A stretch of 14,700 bases of DNA from Candidatus Iainarchaeum sp. (GCA_028700905.1 JAQVRT010000013.1:1-14700); one strand, 5' to 3'. Numbered from the stretch's first letter, positions 5,553 through 13,963 are shown. The notes: generated by a model from the letters alone, not told the origin. Translations and numbers: made by a program.

Positions 5553-5588
5553 ATCTTTTTTTAAAGGTTTTTATCATTATTTTTAATT

Positions 5589-6044
5589 ATGGAATCAAAA
5601 TATTCATTTATTATTTCAGTAATTTCATTTATTTTTATTATAATCTTTTTTATATTCCTTGAAAAAGATTATTTAAGTGGAAAAGATTGTACTTGTAATA
5701 ATGTTATTTCTCAGAATACTTTTTTTATCTTTTTAATATTAATTATAATTTTTTCAATTTCTTTATTTTATTATCTTCATTCTTTATCTTTAAATAAAAA
5801 AAATAAAATAATTTTTTCAAACCAAAAAACAATTTTTTCAATCTTAACTTTAGAGGAAAAATCTTTCCTAACAAATATCATTACAGAAAAAGGAAAAGTT
5901 GAACAATTAGTTTTAGCAGAAAAATATGGTAAAATTAAAGCTCATAGGTTAATTAAAAAACTTAAAGAGAAAAATATTGTGCTTGTAAAAAAAGAAAATA
6001 ATAAAAATATAATTTTACTAAATAAAGAACTTGAATTAATTTAA
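5589..6044 (+). CDS. membrane-anchored winged-helix (MarR/TrmB-like) DNA-binding protein
   Basis: 151 aa. Two predicted TM helices (about residues 6-24 and 44-64) flank a short loop carrying C-T-C. Then come NKKNK (positive-inside) and a C-terminal wHTH-like segment, LTLEEKSFLTNIITEKGKVEQLVLAEKYGKIKAHRLIKKLKEKNIVLV. Confidence 0.55.
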   Translation: MESKYSFIISVISFIFIIIFFIFLEKDYLSGKDCTCNNVISQNTFFIFLILIIIFSISLFYYLHSLSLNKKNKIIFSNQKTIFSILTLEEKSFLTNIITEKGKVEQLVLAEKYGKIKAHRLIKKLKEKNIVLVKKENNKNIILLNKELELI

Positions 6045-6082
6045 TAATTATAAAAATAAATTTAACCTTAGGTGATCTATAT

Positions 6083-7339
6083 ATGCAAACAAAAAAAATA
6101 GTTTTAAAAAATATTTTTTTATTAATTTTTTTATTTTTATTTTTTTCAACATCAATAAGTGCTCTAGATAATAATTTAGACATTAATGTTTTTGTAAGTA
6201 ATACTTGTCCTCATTGTGCAGAATTAAAAGAATTCTTAAAATCAATTGAAAATAATTATGATTATTTAAATTTAAATTTTTATGAAGTTTCTTCAAGTGA
6301 AAATCAAGAACTTTTTTATAATTTAACACAAGCTCATGGTTTTCAACCTCAAGCAGTTCCTACAACTTTTATAGGTGATCAATATTTTGTAGGGTATAGT
6401 TCTCAAATGAATTCAGAAATCATTAATTTAATTGAAGATGCAAAGATTGAAGCAATTGATGTTAATGAAAATACAGATAATAATTCTTCTCAAGAAACAA
6501 TAGAAAGCTCCTCTCAAACCTTTAATATACCATTGATTGGTAAAGTAGATTCAAGTGCTGTATCTTTACCTCTTTTAACAATAATTCTTGGTTTTTTAGA
6601 TGGTTTTAATCCATGTGCTTTCTTTGTTTTATTATTTTTATTATCAATGCTTGTTTATGCAAAAAATAAAAAAAGAATGTTAATTATAGGGCTTACTTTT
6701 ATTTTCTTTTCTGGTTTAATTTATTTTTTATTTATGTCTGCTTGGCTTAATTTCTTTAAAGTTACTCAAAATATTTCAATAGTTACAACTATTGCAGGAA
6801 TAATTGCTTTAGTAATTGCAATTATTAATATTAAAGACTTTTTTGCTTTTAAAAAAGGAGTTACTTTATCTGTTTCAGATGATCATAGAAAAAATTTAAT
6901 TGAAAGAATGAGAAATCTTCTTAAAGCAGAATCAATGACCTCTATGATGATTGGAACAATTGTTCTTGCAATTACAGCTAACATTTATGAATTATTATGT
7001 ACTGCTGGGTTCCCTATGGTTTTTACAAAGATTTTAGTTTTAAACCAATTAAGTAATGTAAGTTATTATTCTTATTTATTATTCTATAACTTAATGTATG
7101 TTCTACCATTATTAGTTATAGTTTTAATTTTTACATACACTTTAGGTGCAAGAAAACTTTCTCAATCTCAAGGAGAAGCCTTAAAACTACTTTCAGGTAT
7201 GATGATGTTATCTTTAGGAGGAATGCTTGTTTTTTCTCCAGGTCTTTTAAATAATATTTTCTCTGCTATTGGTGTAATATTTTTAGCTTTGATTTTAACA
7301 GGTATTATTATTTTTATAAAAAATAAAATTAAAAAGTGA
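6083..7339 (+). CDS. exported thioredoxin/glutaredoxin-fold domain (CPHC) fused to a DsbD/CcdA-like thiol:disulfide transfer membrane domain
   Basis: 418 aa with AGGTGA 7 nt upstream. It has a signal peptide ending ISA, a C42-P-H-C45 motif (TGT at 6206-6208) in a Trx-like context and an S/N-rich linker. About 6 TM helices follow, with membrane cysteines in GFLDGFNPCAFFVLLFLL and YELLCTAGFPMVF, as in the DsbD/CcdA superfamily. Confidence 0.6.
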   Translation: MQTKKIVLKNIFLLIFLFLFFSTSISALDNNLDINVFVSNTCPHCAELKEFLKSIENNYDYLNLNFYEVSSSENQELFYNLTQAHGFQPQAVPTTFIGDQYFVGYSSQMNSEIINLIEDAKIEAIDVNENTDNNSSQETIESSSQTFNIPLIGKVDSSAVSLPLLTIILGFLDGFNPCAFFVLLFLLSMLVYAKNKKRMLIIGLTFIFFSGLIYFLFMSAWLNFFKVTQNISIVTTIAGIIALVIAIINIKDFFAFKKGVTLSVSDDHRKNLIERMRNLLKAESMTSMMIGTIVLAITANIYELLCTAGFPMVFTKILVLNQLSNVSYYSYLLFYNLMYVLPLLVIVLIFTYTLGARKLSQSQGEALKLLSGMMMLSLGGMLVFSPGLLNNIFSAIGVIFLALILTGIIIFIKNKIKK

Positions 7340-7348
7340 GTTTAAGAT

Positions 7349-7756
7349 ATGAAATATAAAGAATATAATCTTCCTGATAATCTTTTATATAATAAAGATT
7401 CAAGTTGGATTAAAATAGATAAAGATATTGCTACATTAGGAGTTATTGAACCTATTGCAAAAACATTAAAAGAATTTTTATTTATTAAATTTTCTGATTT
7501 AAAAACTATTAAAAAAAAAGAAATATATGCTTCTCTTGAAACTTTAAAATGGTCTGGACATTTAACTTCTCCATTAAGTGGAGAAATTATAGAGATTAAT
7601 CAAGATTTATATGACTCTCCAGAAAAAATAAATAAAGAACCTTATGCTTCTTGGATTATAAAAATAAAATTCTCTGATCTTAAAGAAATTAAAGAATTAT
7701 TTAAGGCAGAAGAAATAATTGAATGGCTTGAAAAAACAATTAATAAAGGTGATTAA
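7349..7756 (+). CDS. gcvH: glycine cleavage system H-like lipoyl carrier protein
   Basis: 135 aa. SLETLKWSGHLTSPLSGEIIEINQDLYDSPEKINKEPYASWIIKIKFSD aligns with the canonical vESvKa..dlysPvsGev...N..l..sPelvN.dPY..gW..kik. The lipoyl-lysine is retained (K67, AAA at 7547-7549). Confidence 0.85.
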   Translation: MKYKEYNLPDNLLYNKDSSWIKIDKDIATLGVIEPIAKTLKEFLFIKFSDLKTIKKKEIYASLETLKWSGHLTSPLSGEIIEINQDLYDSPEKINKEPYASWIIKIKFSDLKEIKELFKAEEIIEWLEKTINKGD

Positions 7757-7759
7757 GAT

Positions 7760-8092
7760 ATGTGTGCTTTAGAAGAAGAAAAAAAATTTAATGATTTGTT
7801 TATTTATCTTAAAAAAAATAGTTCTCAACATATAAATGAATTTCAAAAATTTATGGCAACTGTTGAAGAAGATGGAAAACTTTCTTCAAAAATAAAAGAA
7901 GCAGTTGCTTTAGGAATAGCTATTAAATCTCAATGTAAGGCTTGTATTTTTTTACATACAAAAAAAGCATTAAACAAAGGATATACTGAAGAAGAAATCT
8001 TAGAGATTGCATGGGTTGCAGTTTTAATGGGTGGAGGACCTTCTTTAATGTACATGACTTATGTAAAAGAAGCTTTAGAGGAATATAAATGA
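7760..8092 (+). CDS. carboxymuconolactone decarboxylase (CMD)/AhpD-like family protein with CxxC...H motif
   Basis: 110 aa with AGGTGA 7 nt upstream, inside the gcvH 3' end. KIKEAVALGIAIKSQCKACIFLHTKKALNKGYTEEEILEIAWVAVLMGGGP matches the CMD core pattern (C-x-x-C-x-x-x-H, then G.s.eEi.E). The cysteines are C59 and C62, with TGT at 7934-7936. Confidence 0.8.
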   Translation: MCALEEEKKFNDLFIYLKKNSSQHINEFQKFMATVEEDGKLSSKIKEAVALGIAIKSQCKACIFLHTKKALNKGYTEEEILEIAWVAVLMGGGPSLMYMTYVKEALEEYK

Positions 8093-8850
8093 AAGAATGG
8101 AGATTTATTCCTCTTGAAAATAAAGAAGACTCTTATATGAAAATGGCAACAGAAGAAGCTATCATGTCTTCTGTTAGAGAAAAATCCTCTCTTCCAACAC
8201 TTAGGTTTTATTCTTGGAAAAATCCAGCTGTTTCTTTAGGTTTCTTTCAAGATGCTAAAAAAGAGTTAAATCTTGAAGAATGCAAAAAAAATAATGTTGA
8301 AATTTTTAGAAGAATAACAGGAGGAGGAGCTGTCTATAAGTCTCCTCTTTATGAAATAAACTATAGCTTAATAATAAGAGAAGACGATTCAATTATTCCA
8401 AAAGATGTAGAAAAATCATATGCTTTAATCTGTGATGGTATAATTGTTGGACTTAAAAAACTTGGTTTTCAAACAACTTTTAAACCAATAAACGATATTT
8501 TGCTTAATAATAAAAAAGTTTCAGGAAATGCTCAAACAAGAGTTGATAATGTTATTTTACATCATGGAACAATTCTTTTAAAACCTGAAAGTGAAGAGAT
8601 GTTTAAGTACCTTAAGATAGATGATTCTAAGCTTCTTGAAAAAAAAGTAAAATCTGTAAAAGATCTTGTCTGTGGGCTTTATGATTATAAAGTGTTTACA
8701 AAAGAAGAAATAATTGATTCTATTTGTAAAGGTTTTAAAGAAGTTTTTAATATTACTCTTGTAAAATCTAATTTAACTGAAAAAGAAAAATTAATGGCAA
8801 AAGAGCTTTATTTTAAATATTGTGATGAAAAATTTATTTTTTGGAAATAA
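8089..8850 (+). CDS. lplA: lipoate-protein ligase A, catalytic domain only
   Basis: 253 aa. Its ATG overlaps the upstream stop (ATGA at 8089-8092). LplA/LipB-family motifs are present: LRFYSWKNPAVSLGFFQ, RRITGGGAVY and KKVSGNAQTR...HHGTILL (catalytic Lys in KVSGNAQ). The roughly 90-aa C-terminal accessory domain of long LplAs is absent. Confidence 0.85.
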   Translation: MKEWRFIPLENKEDSYMKMATEEAIMSSVREKSSLPTLRFYSWKNPAVSLGFFQDAKKELNLEECKKNNVEIFRRITGGGAVYKSPLYEINYSLIIREDDSIIPKDVEKSYALICDGIIVGLKKLGFQTTFKPINDILLNNKKVSGNAQTRVDNVILHHGTILLKPESEEMFKYLKIDDSKLLEKKVKSVKDLVCGLYDYKVFTKEEIIDSICKGFKEVFNITLVKSNLTEKEKLMAKELYFKYCDEKFIFWK

Positions 8851-8863
8851 TCTTTTTTGTATT

Positions 8864-9568
8864 TTACTCTCTTACAAACCTATATTCCTTATCAAGCTTA
8901 TAACCTTTTTCAGGAGTAAAATAAACTTCAAAACCAATTTTGTCTAAAACTTTTAAAACATTAAAAACAGTTTCTTTATTTTTTATATTTCCTTGCATGT
9001 TTGATAATAAATGCACCATTTTTCTCGTAAAATTATCTCTGTTTTTTACACTTTTATTTTCAATTTCTGGGAGTATTTTTTTCATAAAGGCATGATTTAT
9101 TTTAACAGTGGTATACCCTAAGACTTTTTTCTCAGGACTTACAACAGCCATAACATCATAACCATGTCTTGTTTTAGGATATTTAAACATTGAATCAATA
9201 AGTGAAAAAAGATCAGGAATTGCATTTCCATTATTATATCTTCCTTTAAGCTTTGGGTCTTGTAATTTAAAGTAAAAGATAGTTCCTTTTTTTTTATCTA
9301 AAGATTCTTTTCCAGCATTTGTTCTTTTTTGATTAATATTTTTAAAAATAGCATCAAACTTTTTAGAGTCAATAACTGTAAAAGAATTTAGTCTATCTCC
9401 TGTAATGTTTACAGTTTTTTCTCCAGGAGCTTTATAGAAAGATATTTTATTTAATCTATTGACATCAATATTTTCAAGAGATTTAATTTCACTTGAAAAT
9501 TTAGGTTTTCCAATTTTAGGTAAGCCCTTAACTTTTGGAGTTATTCTTGGACTATTTTTTGGCTTCAT
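8864..9568 (-). CDS. hypothetical protein, paralog 1 of a tandem pair (no recognisable domain)
   Basis: 234 aa. GTGAGG lies 4-5 nt upstream of the ATG on the minus strand. The start overlaps the upstream paralog by 17 nt. The N-terminus is basic and Pro-rich (MKPKNSPRITPKVKGLPKIGKPKF). It shares the motifs GYTTVKIN and GFEVYFTPEKGYKLDKEYRFVR with 9552-10253. It has no Cys and no TM segment. Confidence 0.7.
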   Translation of the reverse strand: MKPKNSPRITPKVKGLPKIGKPKFSSEIKSLENIDVNRLNKISFYKAPGEKTVNITGDRLNSFTVIDSKKFDAIFKNINQKRTNAGKESLDKKKGTIFYFKLQDPKLKGRYNNGNAIPDLFSLIDSMFKYPKTRHGYDVMAVVSPEKKVLGYTTVKINHAFMKKILPEIENKSVKNRDNFTRKMVHLLSNMQGNIKNKETVFNVLKVLDKIGFEVYFTPEKGYKLDKEYRFVRE

Positions 9569-10253
9569 TTTTCCTCACATAATTAAAGTCTTTATTTAAG
9601 GCATAACCGTCTTCAGGAGTGAAATAAATTTCCATACCTAAACTTTCCATCATTTCAAAAATATATTTTTTATATTCTGCACTCTCTACGTTTCTTTTAG
9701 TTAAAAAACCATCTATTCTTTCAATAAATTGTTTGCTTGTTGCTTTAAGGGTATTAATTTTAATAGTTGTATATCCTATAGGTTTTCTTCTTTTAGGGTC
9801 AATTACAGAAATAATTTGATATTTAATTGATTTTTGTCTATCTTGCATAAAAGAAACAATGTCTGATCTTGATGGAAGTGCCATCCCAAACTCTGTTTTA
9901 GTATTTTTAGGTCTTCTTTTTATTATGTGGGTGTGTAGAAGTTGTGATTTATTTTCTAAGCTTCTTATCTTTTTTTTCAAAGATTCTTTTACTTTTTCAT
10001 TTAGTATTTTTTCAAATTTAATAGTATCTCTTCCAACGTGATCAATATGTCTTTTATATGAAACATCGTATGTACCTTTTCCTGGAACAGATAATAGTTG
10101 TATTTCTTTTTCTTTAATAGTTGGATCTTTTAAAATACTGTTAAACTTATTTCTTCCAATCCTTGATTTTGGAAATATGTTTGGTTCAGGAAGTTTTGGT
10201 TTTTTAATAAGTGTCTTTGGTTTATTATTAATAATTGAATTTGGTCTTTTCAT
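9552..10253 (-). CDS. hypothetical protein, paralog 2 of a tandem pair (no recognisable domain)
   Basis: 233 aa, ATG start with no Shine-Dalgarno site. The N-terminus is basic and Pro-rich (MKRPNSIINNKPKTLIKKPKLPEP). The shared motifs are GYTTIKIN and GMEIYFTPEDGYALNKDFNYVR. It has no Cys and no TM segment. Confidence 0.7.
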   Translation of the reverse strand: MKRPNSIINNKPKTLIKKPKLPEPNIFPKSRIGRNKFNSILKDPTIKEKEIQLLSVPGKGTYDVSYKRHIDHVGRDTIKFEKILNEKVKESLKKKIRSLENKSQLLHTHIIKRRPKNTKTEFGMALPSRSDIVSFMQDRQKSIKYQIISVIDPKRRKPIGYTTIKINTLKATSKQFIERIDGFLTKRNVESAEYKKYIFEMMESLGMEIYFTPEDGYALNKDFNYVRKNEAKK

Positions 10254-11343: not shown

Positions 11344-12279
11344 ATGGATTATACAAAAGATTTTTTATGGAAAGAAAACTTAACAGTTTCAGAATTATTA
11401 GAAGGTTATGGAAAGATAGGTTTTCAAAGTTATGAACTTAAAAGAGCATCAGACCTTTTAGTTAAAATGAAAAAAGAAGGTGCAAAAGTTTATTTCTCAT
11501 TTACTTCAAATATGGTAACTTCAGGTTTAAGAGGTTTTTTTGCACAGTTAATTGAAAAGAAAATGTGTGATGTTATAGTTACAACTGTAGGTTCAATTGA
11601 AGAAGATATTATGAAAGCTGATGGAGATAAGTTTATTTTAGGTTCATTTTCTTCAAATGATGAAGAATTATATGAAAGAGGAGAAAATAGAGTTGGTAAT
11701 ATTTTAATTACAAATGATCAATACCAAAAACTTGAAGCAAAAATTAAAAATTTACTTTTAGAAGTTTATAAAGAAAAAAAATCTTTAACAATCTCTGAAC
11801 TTTTAAGAGAGATTGGTCTTAAGTTAAATGATCCTTCATCAATACTTTATCAAGCAGCAATAAACAATGTTCCTGTCTTTTGTCCTGCAATAACAGATGG
11901 CTCTTTTGGTTTCCACTTATATTTATTTAAAGAAGAACATAAAGATTTTAATGTTGATATTATTAATGATTTTAGAAATATTATTTTTTCAACATCACAT
12001 GATGAAAAAAAAGGAATTGTTGCTCTTGGTGGTGGAGTTTCAAAACACCATATTATTCTTACAACTTTAATTAATGGTGGAGCAGATTATGCTCTTTATA
12101 TGACAACAGCCTCTCCTCGCTCAGGAAGTCTTTCAGGAGCAACAACTGATGAAGCTAAGTCTTGGGGTAAGATTAAAGATAATTCTGATGCTGTAACTGT
12201 TATTGGAGATGTTACTATAACTTTTCCAATAGCTATGGTTTCTGCTCTTGATACTTTAAAAAAAGAAGGAGTGCTTTAA
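11344..12279 (+). CDS. dys: deoxyhypusine synthase
   Basis: 311 aa. DHS signatures are present: GFQSYELKRA, SNMVTSGLRG, DVIVTTVGSIEEDI, GGGVSKHH and the catalytic-lysine context DEAKSWGKI. Confidence 0.9.
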   Translation: MDYTKDFLWKENLTVSELLEGYGKIGFQSYELKRASDLLVKMKKEGAKVYFSFTSNMVTSGLRGFFAQLIEKKMCDVIVTTVGSIEEDIMKADGDKFILGSFSSNDEELYERGENRVGNILITNDQYQKLEAKIKNLLLEVYKEKKSLTISELLREIGLKLNDPSSILYQAAINNVPVFCPAITDGSFGFHLYLFKEEHKDFNVDIINDFRNIIFSTSHDEKKGIVALGGGVSKHHIILTTLINGGADYALYMTTASPRSGSLSGATTDEAKSWGKIKDNSDAVTVIGDVTITFPIAMVSALDTLKKEGVL

Positions 12280-12282
12280 GGT

Positions 12283-12912
12283 ATGCTTAAAAAAAGTATT
12301 TCAAAAGTTAGGTCCAGTATAAAAAAAATAAATCCTTTCAAAAGAGAAAAAAGTGTTTATGAGAAACTAAATGAAAGATATAGAGATGTAAGGTATGAAT
12401 ATTTTCCAGAAAAACCTTCTTTTAAAGAATTAAATGATGCTATTAATAAAGATAAAATAGTTACTTTCTTAACTGATAAAAAAAGAACAACAATTGTTGG
12501 AGAATCTAAATATATATCTTTTTTATCTTATATTGAAAGAGATGGAATTCATTTTTCAAGAGGAACTTTTAAAACAAAAGGTAAGAATTCTTTTAGAAAT
12601 TTATATGATATTAAAAAATATGCTGATTTTTTAGTAAGATTTTCAAAAAAAAATAGAATTAAAGAAATTAGAACTGAAACTTGGCTTTTTGAAGAGTTTA
12701 AAGGTTTTGCAAAATATATAGGGGGTTTTAAATTGGAAAAAACTCCTGCAAATCTTAATAGAATTAATAAATATAGAGAAGCACTTTTAAAGAATAATGT
12801 TAAAAAAGTTGTATCTTTTAATTTTGAAAGAAATCAATTAAAGTGTTTTACAAAAGAAGGAAAAGAGATTTCTCTAAAACTAGAGCTTCCATCTTATGTT
12901 TTAAAGGTGTGA
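12283..12912 (+). CDS. hypothetical protein (no recognisable domain), embedded in the hypusine/polyamine cluster
   Basis: 209 aa. It starts 3 nt after the dys stop, with AAGGAGTG inside the dys 3' end, and ends 7 nt before the decarboxylase ATG. The N-terminus is basic (MLKKSISKVRSSIKKINPFKREK). I recognise no motifs. Confidence 0.65.
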   Translation: MLKKSISKVRSSIKKINPFKREKSVYEKLNERYRDVRYEYFPEKPSFKELNDAINKDKIVTFLTDKKRTTIVGESKYISFLSYIERDGIHFSRGTFKTKGKNSFRNLYDIKKYADFLVRFSKKNRIKEIRTETWLFEEFKGFAKYIGGFKLEKTPANLNRINKYREALLKNNVKKVVSFNFERNQLKCFTKEGKEISLKLELPSYVLKV

Positions 12913-12919
12913 TATTTAA

Positions 12920-13963
12920 ATGAAATCAAATGCAAAATTTGTTTTTTCAAAAGAAAAAATATTAAAAGAATATAAAAAAGTAGAAAAGTTATCTGATATT
13001 GTTTGTTATAGTGTTAAGTCTAATCCTTATATTACTTCAGTTTTAGAAGAAAACACCTCTTCTAATTTTTTAATACATCATAATAATGAGATTGAAAAAA
13101 TAAAAGATAAAAAAAAAATATGGTATATGCTTCATTCTCCTGATAAAGAAGAGATTAGTGTAATTTTTAAAGAAGGAATTGATAAATTTATTGTTGATAA
13201 TAAAAATGATTTAAATTTTCTTTTAGAAGAAATTAAAAATAATAATTATAAGATAACTTTACTTTTAAGAATGAGACTTAAAGAATATACTGTTGTTACT
13301 GGTAAGTTTTTTGTTTATGGTTTTTATTCAAAAGAAATTAATGATTTAATTATTTCATTAAAAGATAATCCTTTAATTGAAAAGTTAGGTGTTCATTTCC
13401 ATAGAAAAACACAAAATTTATCTGAATGGTCTTTAATTGAAGAGATTTCATCTTCTCTTAGAAAAGAAACTTTAGAAAAAATTGATTTTTTAGATATTGG
13501 AGGAGGGCTTCCTGTTTTATATAAAAACATTAATCCTAAAACAATAGAGGTTATTTATGAAAAATTAAAAGAACTTAAAATATTTTTAAATAGTTTAAAT
13601 ATTAAACTTTTAACTGAACCTGGAAGAAGTATTGCTGCACCTTCAGGAAAGTTAATTACAACTATAAAAAATATTGTTGATGATACTATTTTTATTGATG
13701 CATCTTTATTTAATTGTTCAATGGATACTTTAGTTACTCATATTAAACTTTTAGTTGATGGAGAAAGTGAAACTAATACTCTTAAACCTTATACAATTAA
13801 AGGTTTAACTCCAGCTTCAGAAGATATTTTTAGATATAGAGTATATTTTAAGGAAGGATATGTTCCAAAGATAGGAGATAAAGTTATTTTCTTAAATGCA
13901 GGTGCATATATCTATTATACAGATCTTTTTAATCTTGAAAGACCAAAAATTGAATTTATTTAG
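12920..13963 (+). CDS. group IV PLP-dependent decarboxylase (Orn/Arg/DAP/carboxynorspermidine decarboxylase family), compact form
   Basis: 347 aa. It has the PLP-lysine context CYSVKSNP, GVHFHRKTQ, LDIGGGLP, TEPGRSIAAP and the active-site Cys context NCSMDTL. AGGTG lies upstream. Substrate specificity cannot be read from the sequence by eye. Confidence 0.75.
   Translation: MKSNAKFVFSKEKILKEYKKVEKLSDIVCYSVKSNPYITSVLEENTSSNFLIHHNNEIEKIKDKKKIWYMLHSPDKEEISVIFKEGIDKFIVDNKNDLNFLLEEIKNNNYKITLLLRMRLKEYTVVTGKFFVYGFYSKEINDLIISLKDNPLIEKLGVHFHRKTQNLSEWSLIEEISSSLRKETLEKIDFLDIGGGLPVLYKNINPKTIEVIYEKLKELKIFLNSLNIKLLTEPGRSIAAPSGKLITTIKNIVDDTIFIDASLFNCSMDTLVTHIKLLVDGESETNTLKPYTIKGLTPASEDIFRYRVYFKEGYVPKIGDKVIFLNAGAYIYYTDLFNLERPKIEFI

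Follow-up and report, generated by a model that had tools for sequence, protein, structure and literature searches.

What does a lipoyl carrier protein do where none of the enzymes that normally use one is encoded beside it? This question is raised by a 14,700-nucleotide stretch of DNA from Candidatus Iainarchaeum sp. (GCA_028700905.1 JAQVRT010000013.1:1-14700; hereafter the window), whose source is a DPANN archaeon and whose G+C content is about 22%. Four genes on its + strand encode, in order, a membrane protein (6083-7339), a GcvH-like lipoyl carrier (7349-7756), a CxxC protein of the AhpD/CMD family (7760-8092) and the catalytic (large) subunit of a lipoate ligase, LplA (8089-8850). The membrane protein, which combines a signal peptide, a CPHC glutaredoxin-like domain and seven transmembrane (TM) helices, is referred to by the working name MEM. 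Five metabolic enzyme systems are generally regarded as the users of lipoylation, together with sHdr sulfur oxidation and a staphylococcal stress system, and the present genes come from organisms believed to be without the classical lipoyl enzymes.

An earlier note on this DNA had proposed that lipoyl-GcvH and the AhpD-like protein pass electrons to a DsbD-like membrane protein. Several parts of that proposal stand, namely the operon itself, the lack of any glycine cleavage or 2-oxoacid dehydrogenase partner in the window or 10 kb either side, and a conserved coupling between the carrier and MEM. A core role for the AhpD-like protein does not, and membership of MEM in the DsbD family is not demonstrable. 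We give an even chance to the reading of the operon as a transmembrane thiol relay that depends on a lipoyl protein, with lipoyl-GcvH as its cytoplasmic dithiol partner.

A compact operon with an intact lipoyl carrier

The four same-strand genes form a real and tightly packed operon: the first two gaps are 9 nt and 3 nt, and the CMD stop and the start of lplA share 4 nt (ATGA). Purine-rich ribosome-binding motifs of the GGTGA/GAGG type, also listed in the earlier note, were found before each of the four starts (AGGTGA, GTGAG, GGTGA and GAGG, 8-15 nt upstream). Hidden Markov model searches matched every family that had been suggested for the soluble parts of the system: Glutaredoxin and Thioredoxin in MEM (418 aa; Pfam Glutaredoxin, 9.2e-06 on aa 36-101), GCV_H in the carrier (135 aa, cytoplasmic; PF01597, 1.9e-27), CMD in the thiol oxidoreductase (110 aa; PF02627, 1.6e-14, and TIGR00778) and LplA-B_cat in the ligase (253 aa; PF21948, 1.7e-47). 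In the Pfam tables, genes for GcvP, GcvT, Lpd and E1/E2 are missing from the window, as had been stated, and from the 10 kb on either side in the 364-kb source contig, which is 100% identical to the window over the four genes; GcvP, GcvT and Lpd were likewise absent from the tables of all related loci examined. No AhpC-TSA gene was found in the window or 10 kb either side.

K67 of the carrier (nt 7547-7549) aligns to the lipoyl-lysine of the GcvH proteins of E. coli and T. maritima (3A8I, 1ZKO) and is invariant, as are W68, G70 and H71, in 17 orthologues; the H-protein does keep its lipoylation site. The subfamily signature is E-x-x-K-W-S-G-H, in which K-W-S-G-H differs from the canonical K-A-A/V-S-D/E. 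The window protein, like its subfamily, contains no cysteine, and it scores under the NCBIfam cut-offs for GcvH (PRK01202, 96.5 against 117; TIGR00527, 77.3 against 115.85).

In the AhpD/CMD-family protein the motif C59-x-x-C62-x3-H66 (nt 7934-7957) is kept, as the earlier note had reported. Its closest solved relative is AhpD 5DIK (2.5e-16), with which the CxxC..H residues align, and C59, C62 and H66 are invariant in six orthologues. Its scores lie above the cut-offs for both PF02627 (54.1 bits against 23) and the AhpD core domain (TIGR00778, 37.3 against 27.8).

LplA reaches 162 bits with PF21948 (cut-off 27) and 153.6 bits, under the cut-off, with NF053750 (LplA_large). A KKVSGNAQ motif, read from the sequence, provides the catalytic-lysine context, and the 253-aa protein does not extend beyond the catalytic domain, lacking the accessory C-terminal domain. 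In Thermoplasma a separate LplB subunit is needed for lipoyl-AMP formation. LplB is encoded next after LplA in seven related loci (L016, L020, L043, L054, L089, L093 and L096); no LplB was detected by tblastn in the window, in L001 (the window's own contig, 10 kb either side) or in L090, a Crystal Geyser relative with 88% identity. Either LplB is encoded elsewhere or the window LplA works without it.

MEM carries four invariant cysteines on and within the membrane

MEM begins with a signal peptide (aa 1-27), after which come an acidic, extracytoplasmic glutaredoxin-like domain, a disordered linker of low complexity and, at aa ~160-418, a domain of seven TM helices. The CPHC motif of the N-terminal domain (C42-P-H-C45, nt 6206-6217) lies within the Glutaredoxin/Thioredoxin matches on residues 34-106. 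From the distribution of lysine and arginine, this domain is outside the cell and the C-terminus, with a lysine-rich tail, is in the cytoplasm. In the AlphaFold2 model (predicted local distance difference test score, pLDDT, 81; 73 for a TM-only model) C178 (FNPC, nt 6614-6616) occupies a mid-membrane break in TM1, which runs out-to-in, and C306 (LLCTAGFP, nt 6998-7000) a mid-membrane break in TM4, which runs in-to-out.

The signal peptide, exported CPHC domain and two intramembrane cysteines described in the earlier note were therefore all found, and the cysteines are invariant in homologues: C42, C45, C178 and C306 do not vary in alignments of 77 and of 84 homologues, the CPHC motif being nearly universal. 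In the 84 archaeal and bacterial homologues the invariant residues of the TM domain are D173, N176, P177, C178, E303, C306 and P311. An amphipathic helix at aa 266-280 is also conserved. The family is large, comprising 4071 clusters at 50% identity (E ≤ 1e-3) from DPANN archaea and many bacteria. One homologue (P0048, 722 aa) has a C-terminal VKOR (PF07884) fusion (alignment columns ~600-753), so that a disulfide-generating module and the two-cysteine relay share one polypeptide. Others carry extra Redoxin/AhpC-TSA-like (TlpA-like) domains.

MEM and the lipoyl carrier are conserved neighbours

Related loci comprise 80 from a scan of species-representative genomes, with others added by exact-protein look-ups. 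GcvH lies directly 3' of MEM in 17 of the 20 distinct archaeal loci that have downstream DNA, at 40-60% identity and often in overlapping order (by 4 nt in L087; also in L088, L089 and L091). The linkage holds in reverse. All four divergent members of the GcvH subfamily that were looked up have MEM immediately upstream, although this MEM is only 29-39% identical to that of the window, and two of the four contigs look bacterial, of the candidate phyla radiation (CPR), one by virtue of a lipobox signal and the other of a neighbouring peptidase S11 gene. The gene-neighbourhood check proposed earlier thus upheld the linkage of MEM with GcvH, which is not due to chance: it is strongly conserved across phyla in both directions. 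The exact order MEM-GcvH-CMD-LplA is repeated in L090 and also in L087, a metagenome-assembled genome of Undinarchaeota with proteins 47-59% identical.

The cluster is common to many ultra-small archaea and some ultra-small bacteria, and its fuller form is longer than that of the window. It begins with a DUF7343 protein or a CVC-type ArsR, followed by MEM, GcvH and a slot filled by CMD, by DUF169 or by a stand-alone glutaredoxin-like CPHC protein that is exported. An optional set of TusA, YeeE-type Sulf_transp, DsrE, DsrE and DsrH comes next, and then a flavoprotein of the CoA-disulfide-reductase (CoADR)/NADH-oxidase (Nox) type, LipA, LplA and LplB. At least 12 loci encode LipA, for de novo sulfur insertion, and MEM and GcvH are coupled just as tightly in these. 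In the window the cluster is reduced to a minimal version, for salvage only.

The flavoprotein, of the CoADR/Nox clade, is encoded in L009, L015, L043, L089, L093 and L096 and reaches 251-311 bits with TIGR03385, under the cut-off. Canonical Lpd and MerA were considered for it and rejected, since lipoamide dehydrogenase gives about 130 bits and MerA 116-130, CoADR/NADH oxidase being best. The radical-SAM gene of the relatives' clusters is LipA (405 bits against a cut-off of 203), and LipS1/S2 was ruled out.

Exported stand-alone CPHC proteins, with signal or lipobox N-termini, are encoded after GcvH in L009, L016, L020, L041, L054 and L093; they are paralogues of the N-terminal domain of MEM. 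A member of DUF169, an uncharacterised family, occupies the CMD slot in L089 (11087-11866), L008, L091 and L095; these proteins are rich in cysteine, with motifs such as VCSCMNGHAAC and IPCGG.

Among bacteria, the order in Geobacter is ArsR - Thioredoxin_3 - MEM - exported Trx - canonical DsbD_TM/CcdA gene. These Trx and DsbD_TM neighbours, together with the VKOR fusion, place MEM in extracytoplasmic thiol-disulfide chemistry. In Shewanella saliphila (L064, 7084-11463) a 482-aa homologue of MEM has an LTXXQ/CpxP-like gene on one side and the genes of a CpxR/CpxA-like two-component system on the other, and the same arrangement occurs in the Shewanella loci L067, L071, L073, L076, L078 and L085, which suggests control of MEM by envelope stress in this genus.

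A proposed lipoyl-dependent relay from cytoplasm to cell surface

From gene content, conserved residues, topology and synteny we infer a relay, including its physical contacts, its direction, its substrates and, for the window's genome, its reductant. LplA would load scavenged lipoate onto K67 of a dedicated, cysteine-free carrier, whose dihydrolipoyl arm would exchange with the mid-membrane cysteine pair of MEM, C178 (TM1) and C306 (TM4). MEM would then exchange with its own surface CPHC glutaredoxin-like domain and, in relatives, this domain may also exchange with the free exported CPHC paralogues.

As in DsbD/CcdA, the net flow would most likely carry reducing equivalents, or else some other cargo bound to thiols, outwards to the cell surface, here with a cytoplasmic lipoyl protein, not thioredoxin, as donor. 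The lipoamide couple has an E0' of -0.29 V (PMC6067878), which is low enough for such a relay. Outward flow is favoured because this couple is strongly reducing and because six loci also encode a flavoprotein disulfide reductase. In relatives the CoADR-like NAD(P)H flavoprotein of the cluster would recharge the lipoyl group, and the full chain would run from NAD(P)H through the flavoprotein, lipoyl-GcvH, optionally CMD, and MEM to the surface.

A broader claim may also be made, namely that lipoyl-GcvH, a dedicated carrier retained by DPANN archaea of otherwise poor metabolism and by some CPR bacteria, is the physiological cytoplasmic partner of an unrecognised, Pfam-less family of two-cysteine membrane proteins (> 4000 clusters at 50% identity) and that together they form a thioredoxin-independent pathway from NAD(P)H to the cell surface. 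Its probability falls, in our estimate, a little short of even.

Observations against the relay and rival explanations

Several observations weigh against this relay, beginning with the identity of MEM itself. The likeness to DsbD/CcdA drawn in the earlier note is borne out for architecture only. No Pfam or NCBIfam family matches the TM domain, and DsbD_TM (PF02683) and DsbD_2 (PF13386) are absent at E ≤ 1 in 16 members. A sequence-profile search of the PDB with MEM returned only Grx, Trx and DsbA matches, all on the N-terminal domain. Foldseek matches of the full-length model are dominated by thioredoxins, and the TM-only model gave no significant E-value; in favour of the likeness, its only PDB match with a TM-score above 0.4 was the nuclear magnetic resonance structure of CcdA, 5VKV (TM-score 0.45/0.52, probability 0.60, E = 1.5). 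Alignment of MEM with a single CcdA by hhalign was not significant. Against a CcdA profile, which is shallow since the homologues found were only those ~80% identical, P was 0.003 in global and 0.007 in local mode (probability 4-5%), compared with 0.19 and 0.06 for a reversed control; in the global alignment to this shallow profile both C178 and C306 align to the two CcdA cysteines, which counts for the relay. An internal 3+3 repeat was not detected in the TM domain by hhalign. Canonical CcdA genes co-exist with MEM in L091, L086 and L022, and MEM is therefore treated as a family separate from CcdA. On sequence and model evidence, which as regards structure is only suggestive, MEM belongs to a separate, uncharacterised family with a CcdA-like architecture, and its membership of DsbD/CcdA is not demonstrable.

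The gene content of some loci also tells against the relay. No flavoprotein reductase, LipA or LplB is encoded in the window or 10 kb either side, and hence no evident electron source for the lipoyl group. MEM lacks GcvH in three archaeal loci (L007, L026 and L028), and GcvH, CMD and LplA are all missing from the surroundings of MEM in each of the 62 bacterial loci; MEM can thus work with other partners. CMD is present in only five of 21 archaeal loci scanned (L001, L090, L011, L033 and L043, from four distinct genomes, L001 being the window's own contig) and in L094. Because it is replaced by DUF169 or an exported CPHC protein in most related clusters, CMD is not a core step as the earlier note had it and is best seen as accessory. 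It may serve as an adaptor that many clusters do without, or open a branch leading, for instance, to a peroxidase. Three further features count against the relay and bear on its rivals: linkage of MEM to arsenic genes, the oxidising type of its CPHC motif and the sulfur-transfer genes inserted in some clusters.

The arsenic genes suggest that MEM might move As(III) (or Sb, Cd or Hg) along its cysteines, dihydrolipoyl-GcvH being a dithiol chaperone of high affinity, or a sacrificial sponge, that delivers the metalloid to MEM for export. The dithiol of lipoyl groups is the classical target of arsenite, which makes a chaperone or efflux function a serious alternative. Of the 62 bacterial MEM loci, 11 are linked to arsC, a connection that the earlier note had not considered. 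Thioredoxin-type ArsC directly follows MEM in eight loci of Nitrospirota/Thermodesulfovibrionales (L030, L034, L035, L037, L045, L058, L068 and L070; MEM ~8001-9230, ArsC ~9203-9710), in which no Acr3 was found within 8 kb and which include two with an upstream ELCVCD ArsR (L037 and L058). L079 has arsR-arsC-acr3-MEM (5557-9101), and L086 (7170-10340) is likewise an arsenic-resistance context. Next to the DPANN and CPR clusters lie genes for ArsR-like proteins with a CVC site, and next to that of L093 an Acr3-type SBF gene, while the best NCBIfam match of the window CMD is to an arsenosugar-associated AhpD-like family (46 bits, sub-threshold). However, Acr3, where present, accompanies MEM instead of being replaced by it (L079 and L086), which weakens the case for MEM as a simple Acr3 substitute. 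Furthermore, the window has no ArsR, ArsC or Acr3, CVC sensors of the ArsR family answer other thiol-reactive signals too, and electron transfer accounts better than metal transport for the CPHC paralogues, the VKOR fusion, the TlpA/Redoxin-like domains and the CcdA/Trx neighbours. Metalloid handling is, overall, an unlikely role. Electron transfer could in principle run inwards, and the CPHC of MEM is a DsbA-type (oxidising) motif, nearly universal in the family. It would then oxidise surface thiols, with electrons passing via MEM and lipoyl-GcvH to the CoADR/Nox-like flavoprotein and on to NAD+ or O2, as a substitute for DsbB/VKOR in DPANN cells, which have no quinones. DPANN and Patescibacteria are reported to be without electron-transport chains, and hence without quinone-dependent DsbB/VKOR function (PMC7507113; PMC5905446 for Ca. 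Forterrea). The best families of the flavoprotein include H2O-forming NADH oxidase. If the CPHC domain is DsbA-like, however, its potential is about -0.12 V and transfer from it to lipoamide would be strongly uphill, and the VKOR fusion of one homologue suggests that MEM is not itself the oxidase. Inward flow is quite improbable.

A sulfane-sulfur or persulfide relay, in which MEM and lipoyl-GcvH process polysulfide or thiosulfate sulfur much as LbpA does in sHdr, with TusA, YeeE and DsrE as carriers, is hinted at by the TusA-Sulf_transp-DsrE-DsrE-DsrH genes between GcvH and LipA in L009, L016, L020, L041 and L054. Dihydrolipoate accepts sulfane sulfur, and LbpA is a proposed sulfur carrier (PMC6067878). 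Such a relay is very improbable, as the window and most other loci have no TusA/YeeE/DsrE genes, Hdr-like genes are absent and the window GcvH lacks the two cysteines typical of LbpA. The inserted genes could deliver sulfur to the lipoyl arm or to LipA. The clusters that carry this insert are of Pacearchaeota type, five being counted; in L088 (12387-15263), as in L016, L020, L041 and L054, it lies between GcvH and LipA with no Hdr/Dsr genes nearby. We know of no prokaryotic lipoate transporter, and MEM might be one, importing free lipoate by thiol-disulfide exchange with its cyclic disulfide for LplA to load onto GcvH as a storage or relay protein. With LplA and no LipA within 10 kb, the window's lipoate must be scavenged. 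But MEM adjoins GcvH, not LplA, is coupled to it as tightly where LipA is encoded and is widespread in bacteria without lipoylation genes nearby, all of which makes a purely salvage role a far-fetched one. Hardly credible, finally, is an ordinary glycine-cleavage H protein with its ligase, set beside an unrelated envelope thiol oxidoreductase. It has in its favour the public annotation of the gene as 'glycine cleavage system protein H'; the scores under the curated cut-offs, the distinct K-W-S-G-H signature, the lack of GcvP/GcvT in the loci examined and an adjacency to MEM conserved across phyla both ways all argue against it.

Comparison with known lipoyl and thiol systems

In its predicted topology MEM resembles the DsbD/CcdA proteins, including CcdA-Etrx of Streptococcus pneumoniae and CcdA-ResA/TlpA, in having one cysteine in each of the oppositely oriented TM1 and TM4 (essential in DsbD/CcdA, invariant in MEM). 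Those systems relay a disulfide across the membrane, linking a dithiol protein of the cytoplasm with a thioredoxin-fold domain outside it, as is proposed for MEM from its genomic context, and exported thioredoxin-fold partners are encoded nearby, recalling the arrangement of CcdA with TlpA or Etrx. Unlike DsbD/CcdA, MEM has no DsbD_TM/DsbD_2 match and has seven TM helices rather than six or eight. Its motifs are D-x-F-N-P-C and E-L-L-C-T-x-x-F-P, whereas those of DsbD/CcdA are of the P-C-x-x-P type; its fused domain is N-terminal, glutaredoxin-like and of CPHC type; and its linked cytoplasmic partner is a lipoyl protein in place of thioredoxin.

Transfer of electrons from a lipoyl group to AhpD was reportedly established by Bryk et al. 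in 2002, in the Lpd-DlaT(SucB)-AhpD-AhpC peroxidase chain of Mycobacterium tuberculosis. There an NADH-driven lipoyl group reduces a CxxC protein, and genes for both kinds of protein, a lipoyl carrier and an AhpD-like CxxC..H protein, are present in the window. The carrier here is, in contrast, a stand-alone GcvH-like protein, not an E2, and neither AhpC nor Lpd is nearby. The flavoprotein of relatives is CoADR-like, AhpD is dispensable in most clusters and the conserved partner is a membrane protein.

A second GcvH tied to redox stress, GcvH-L, is known from Staphylococcus and Streptococcus, in an operon with LplA2, SirTM and a macrodomain protein (PMC4518038; PMC12440151). The two systems share a GcvH that has its own ligase and, here probably, does not serve glycine cleavage. 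They differ in that a membrane thiol protein replaces SirTM and the macrodomain, in the GcvH signature and in the archaeal and CPR taxa concerned. Identity with the GcvH-L operon was rejected, Pfam tables for the window and its flanks listing no SirTM or macrodomain.

In the LbpA system of sHdr, a single GcvH-like protein is clustered with a dedicated ligase, sLpl(AB), and a lipoyl synthase, LipS1/S2 (PMC6067878; PMC10332631). As is probable for the present carrier, it functions outside glycine cleavage, and TusA/DsrE neighbours occur in some relatives of the window cluster. LbpA has two conserved cysteines, near its N- and C-termini, and is linked to hdr-like genes (PMC6067878). The present clusters, on the other hand, have no hdr-like genes, LipA in place of LipS1/S2 and a membrane CPHC protein at their head. 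With no cysteine in the window GcvH and no Hdr genes in any locus, identity with LbpA was ruled out.

A prokaryote-wide survey of lipoate assembly mentions these phyla only for the absence of LipS1/S2 (PMC10332631). A full-text search for lipoate, GcvH or lipoyl synthase in DPANN/CPR, and for lipoyl with DsbD/CcdA, found no published description of the cluster.

Other genes of the window

Directly upstream of MEM, an open reading frame (ORF) of 151 aa (5589-6044, + strand) is predicted to encode two TM helices around a short outside loop with C34-x-C36, followed by a C-terminal winged helix (DUF7343-like). The window copy has no significant Pfam match. Homologues lie directly 5' of MEM in 10 other DPANN loci (L087 7451-7945, L088 8398-8868 on the - strand, L041 7251-7784 and others), with C34 invariant, and the copies in L087, L088 and L091 are annotated DUF7343. 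The protein could plausibly be a membrane-tethered, thiol- or metal-sensing regulator of the operon.

A diverged direct duplication (199-780 and 2380-2961; 76-79% nt identity) accounts for two GNAT acetyltransferase genes (229-783 and 2410-2961), which have near-identical N- and C-termini and bracket another GNAT gene (825-1268) and a DUF2330 membrane protein gene (1330-2406). Tandem paralogous ORFs on the - strand (8864-9568 and 9552-10253; 26-30% identity, 17-nt overlap, no family match) converge on the end of the operon and are conserved in L090. On the + strand, deoxyhypusine synthase, a 209-aa ORF and an Orn/Arg-decarboxylase-like gene (11344-13963), followed in L001 by an arginase-family gene (to ~21257), look like a hypusine/polyamine cluster. 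The presence of deoxyhypusine synthase fits the archaeal source.

Significance

The lipoyl machinery (LplA, with or without LplB, and LipA in relatives) belongs here to a conserved cluster in which just two partners are constant, a lipoyl carrier and a membrane thiol protein. The complete genome of Ca. Forterrea, a Diapherotrite from Crystal Geyser, is reported to lack an electron-transport chain, a TCA cycle and vitamin synthesis (PMC5905446). If the wider claim for lipoyl-GcvH is true, it would explain why lipoate ligase and lipoyl synthase are kept in organisms that have neither glycine cleavage nor 2-oxoacid dehydrogenases. With no more than four to eight small genes, the system is open to direct reconstitution. 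If the coupling is real, it would give the large MEM family a testable function, including in Nitrospirota, Geobacter and Shewanella, where its members lie beside ars or cpx genes. It would also give lipoate a new job, in trans-membrane thiol chemistry at the surface of episymbionts, and offer a concrete explanation for the lipoate dependence of DPANN and CPR symbionts.

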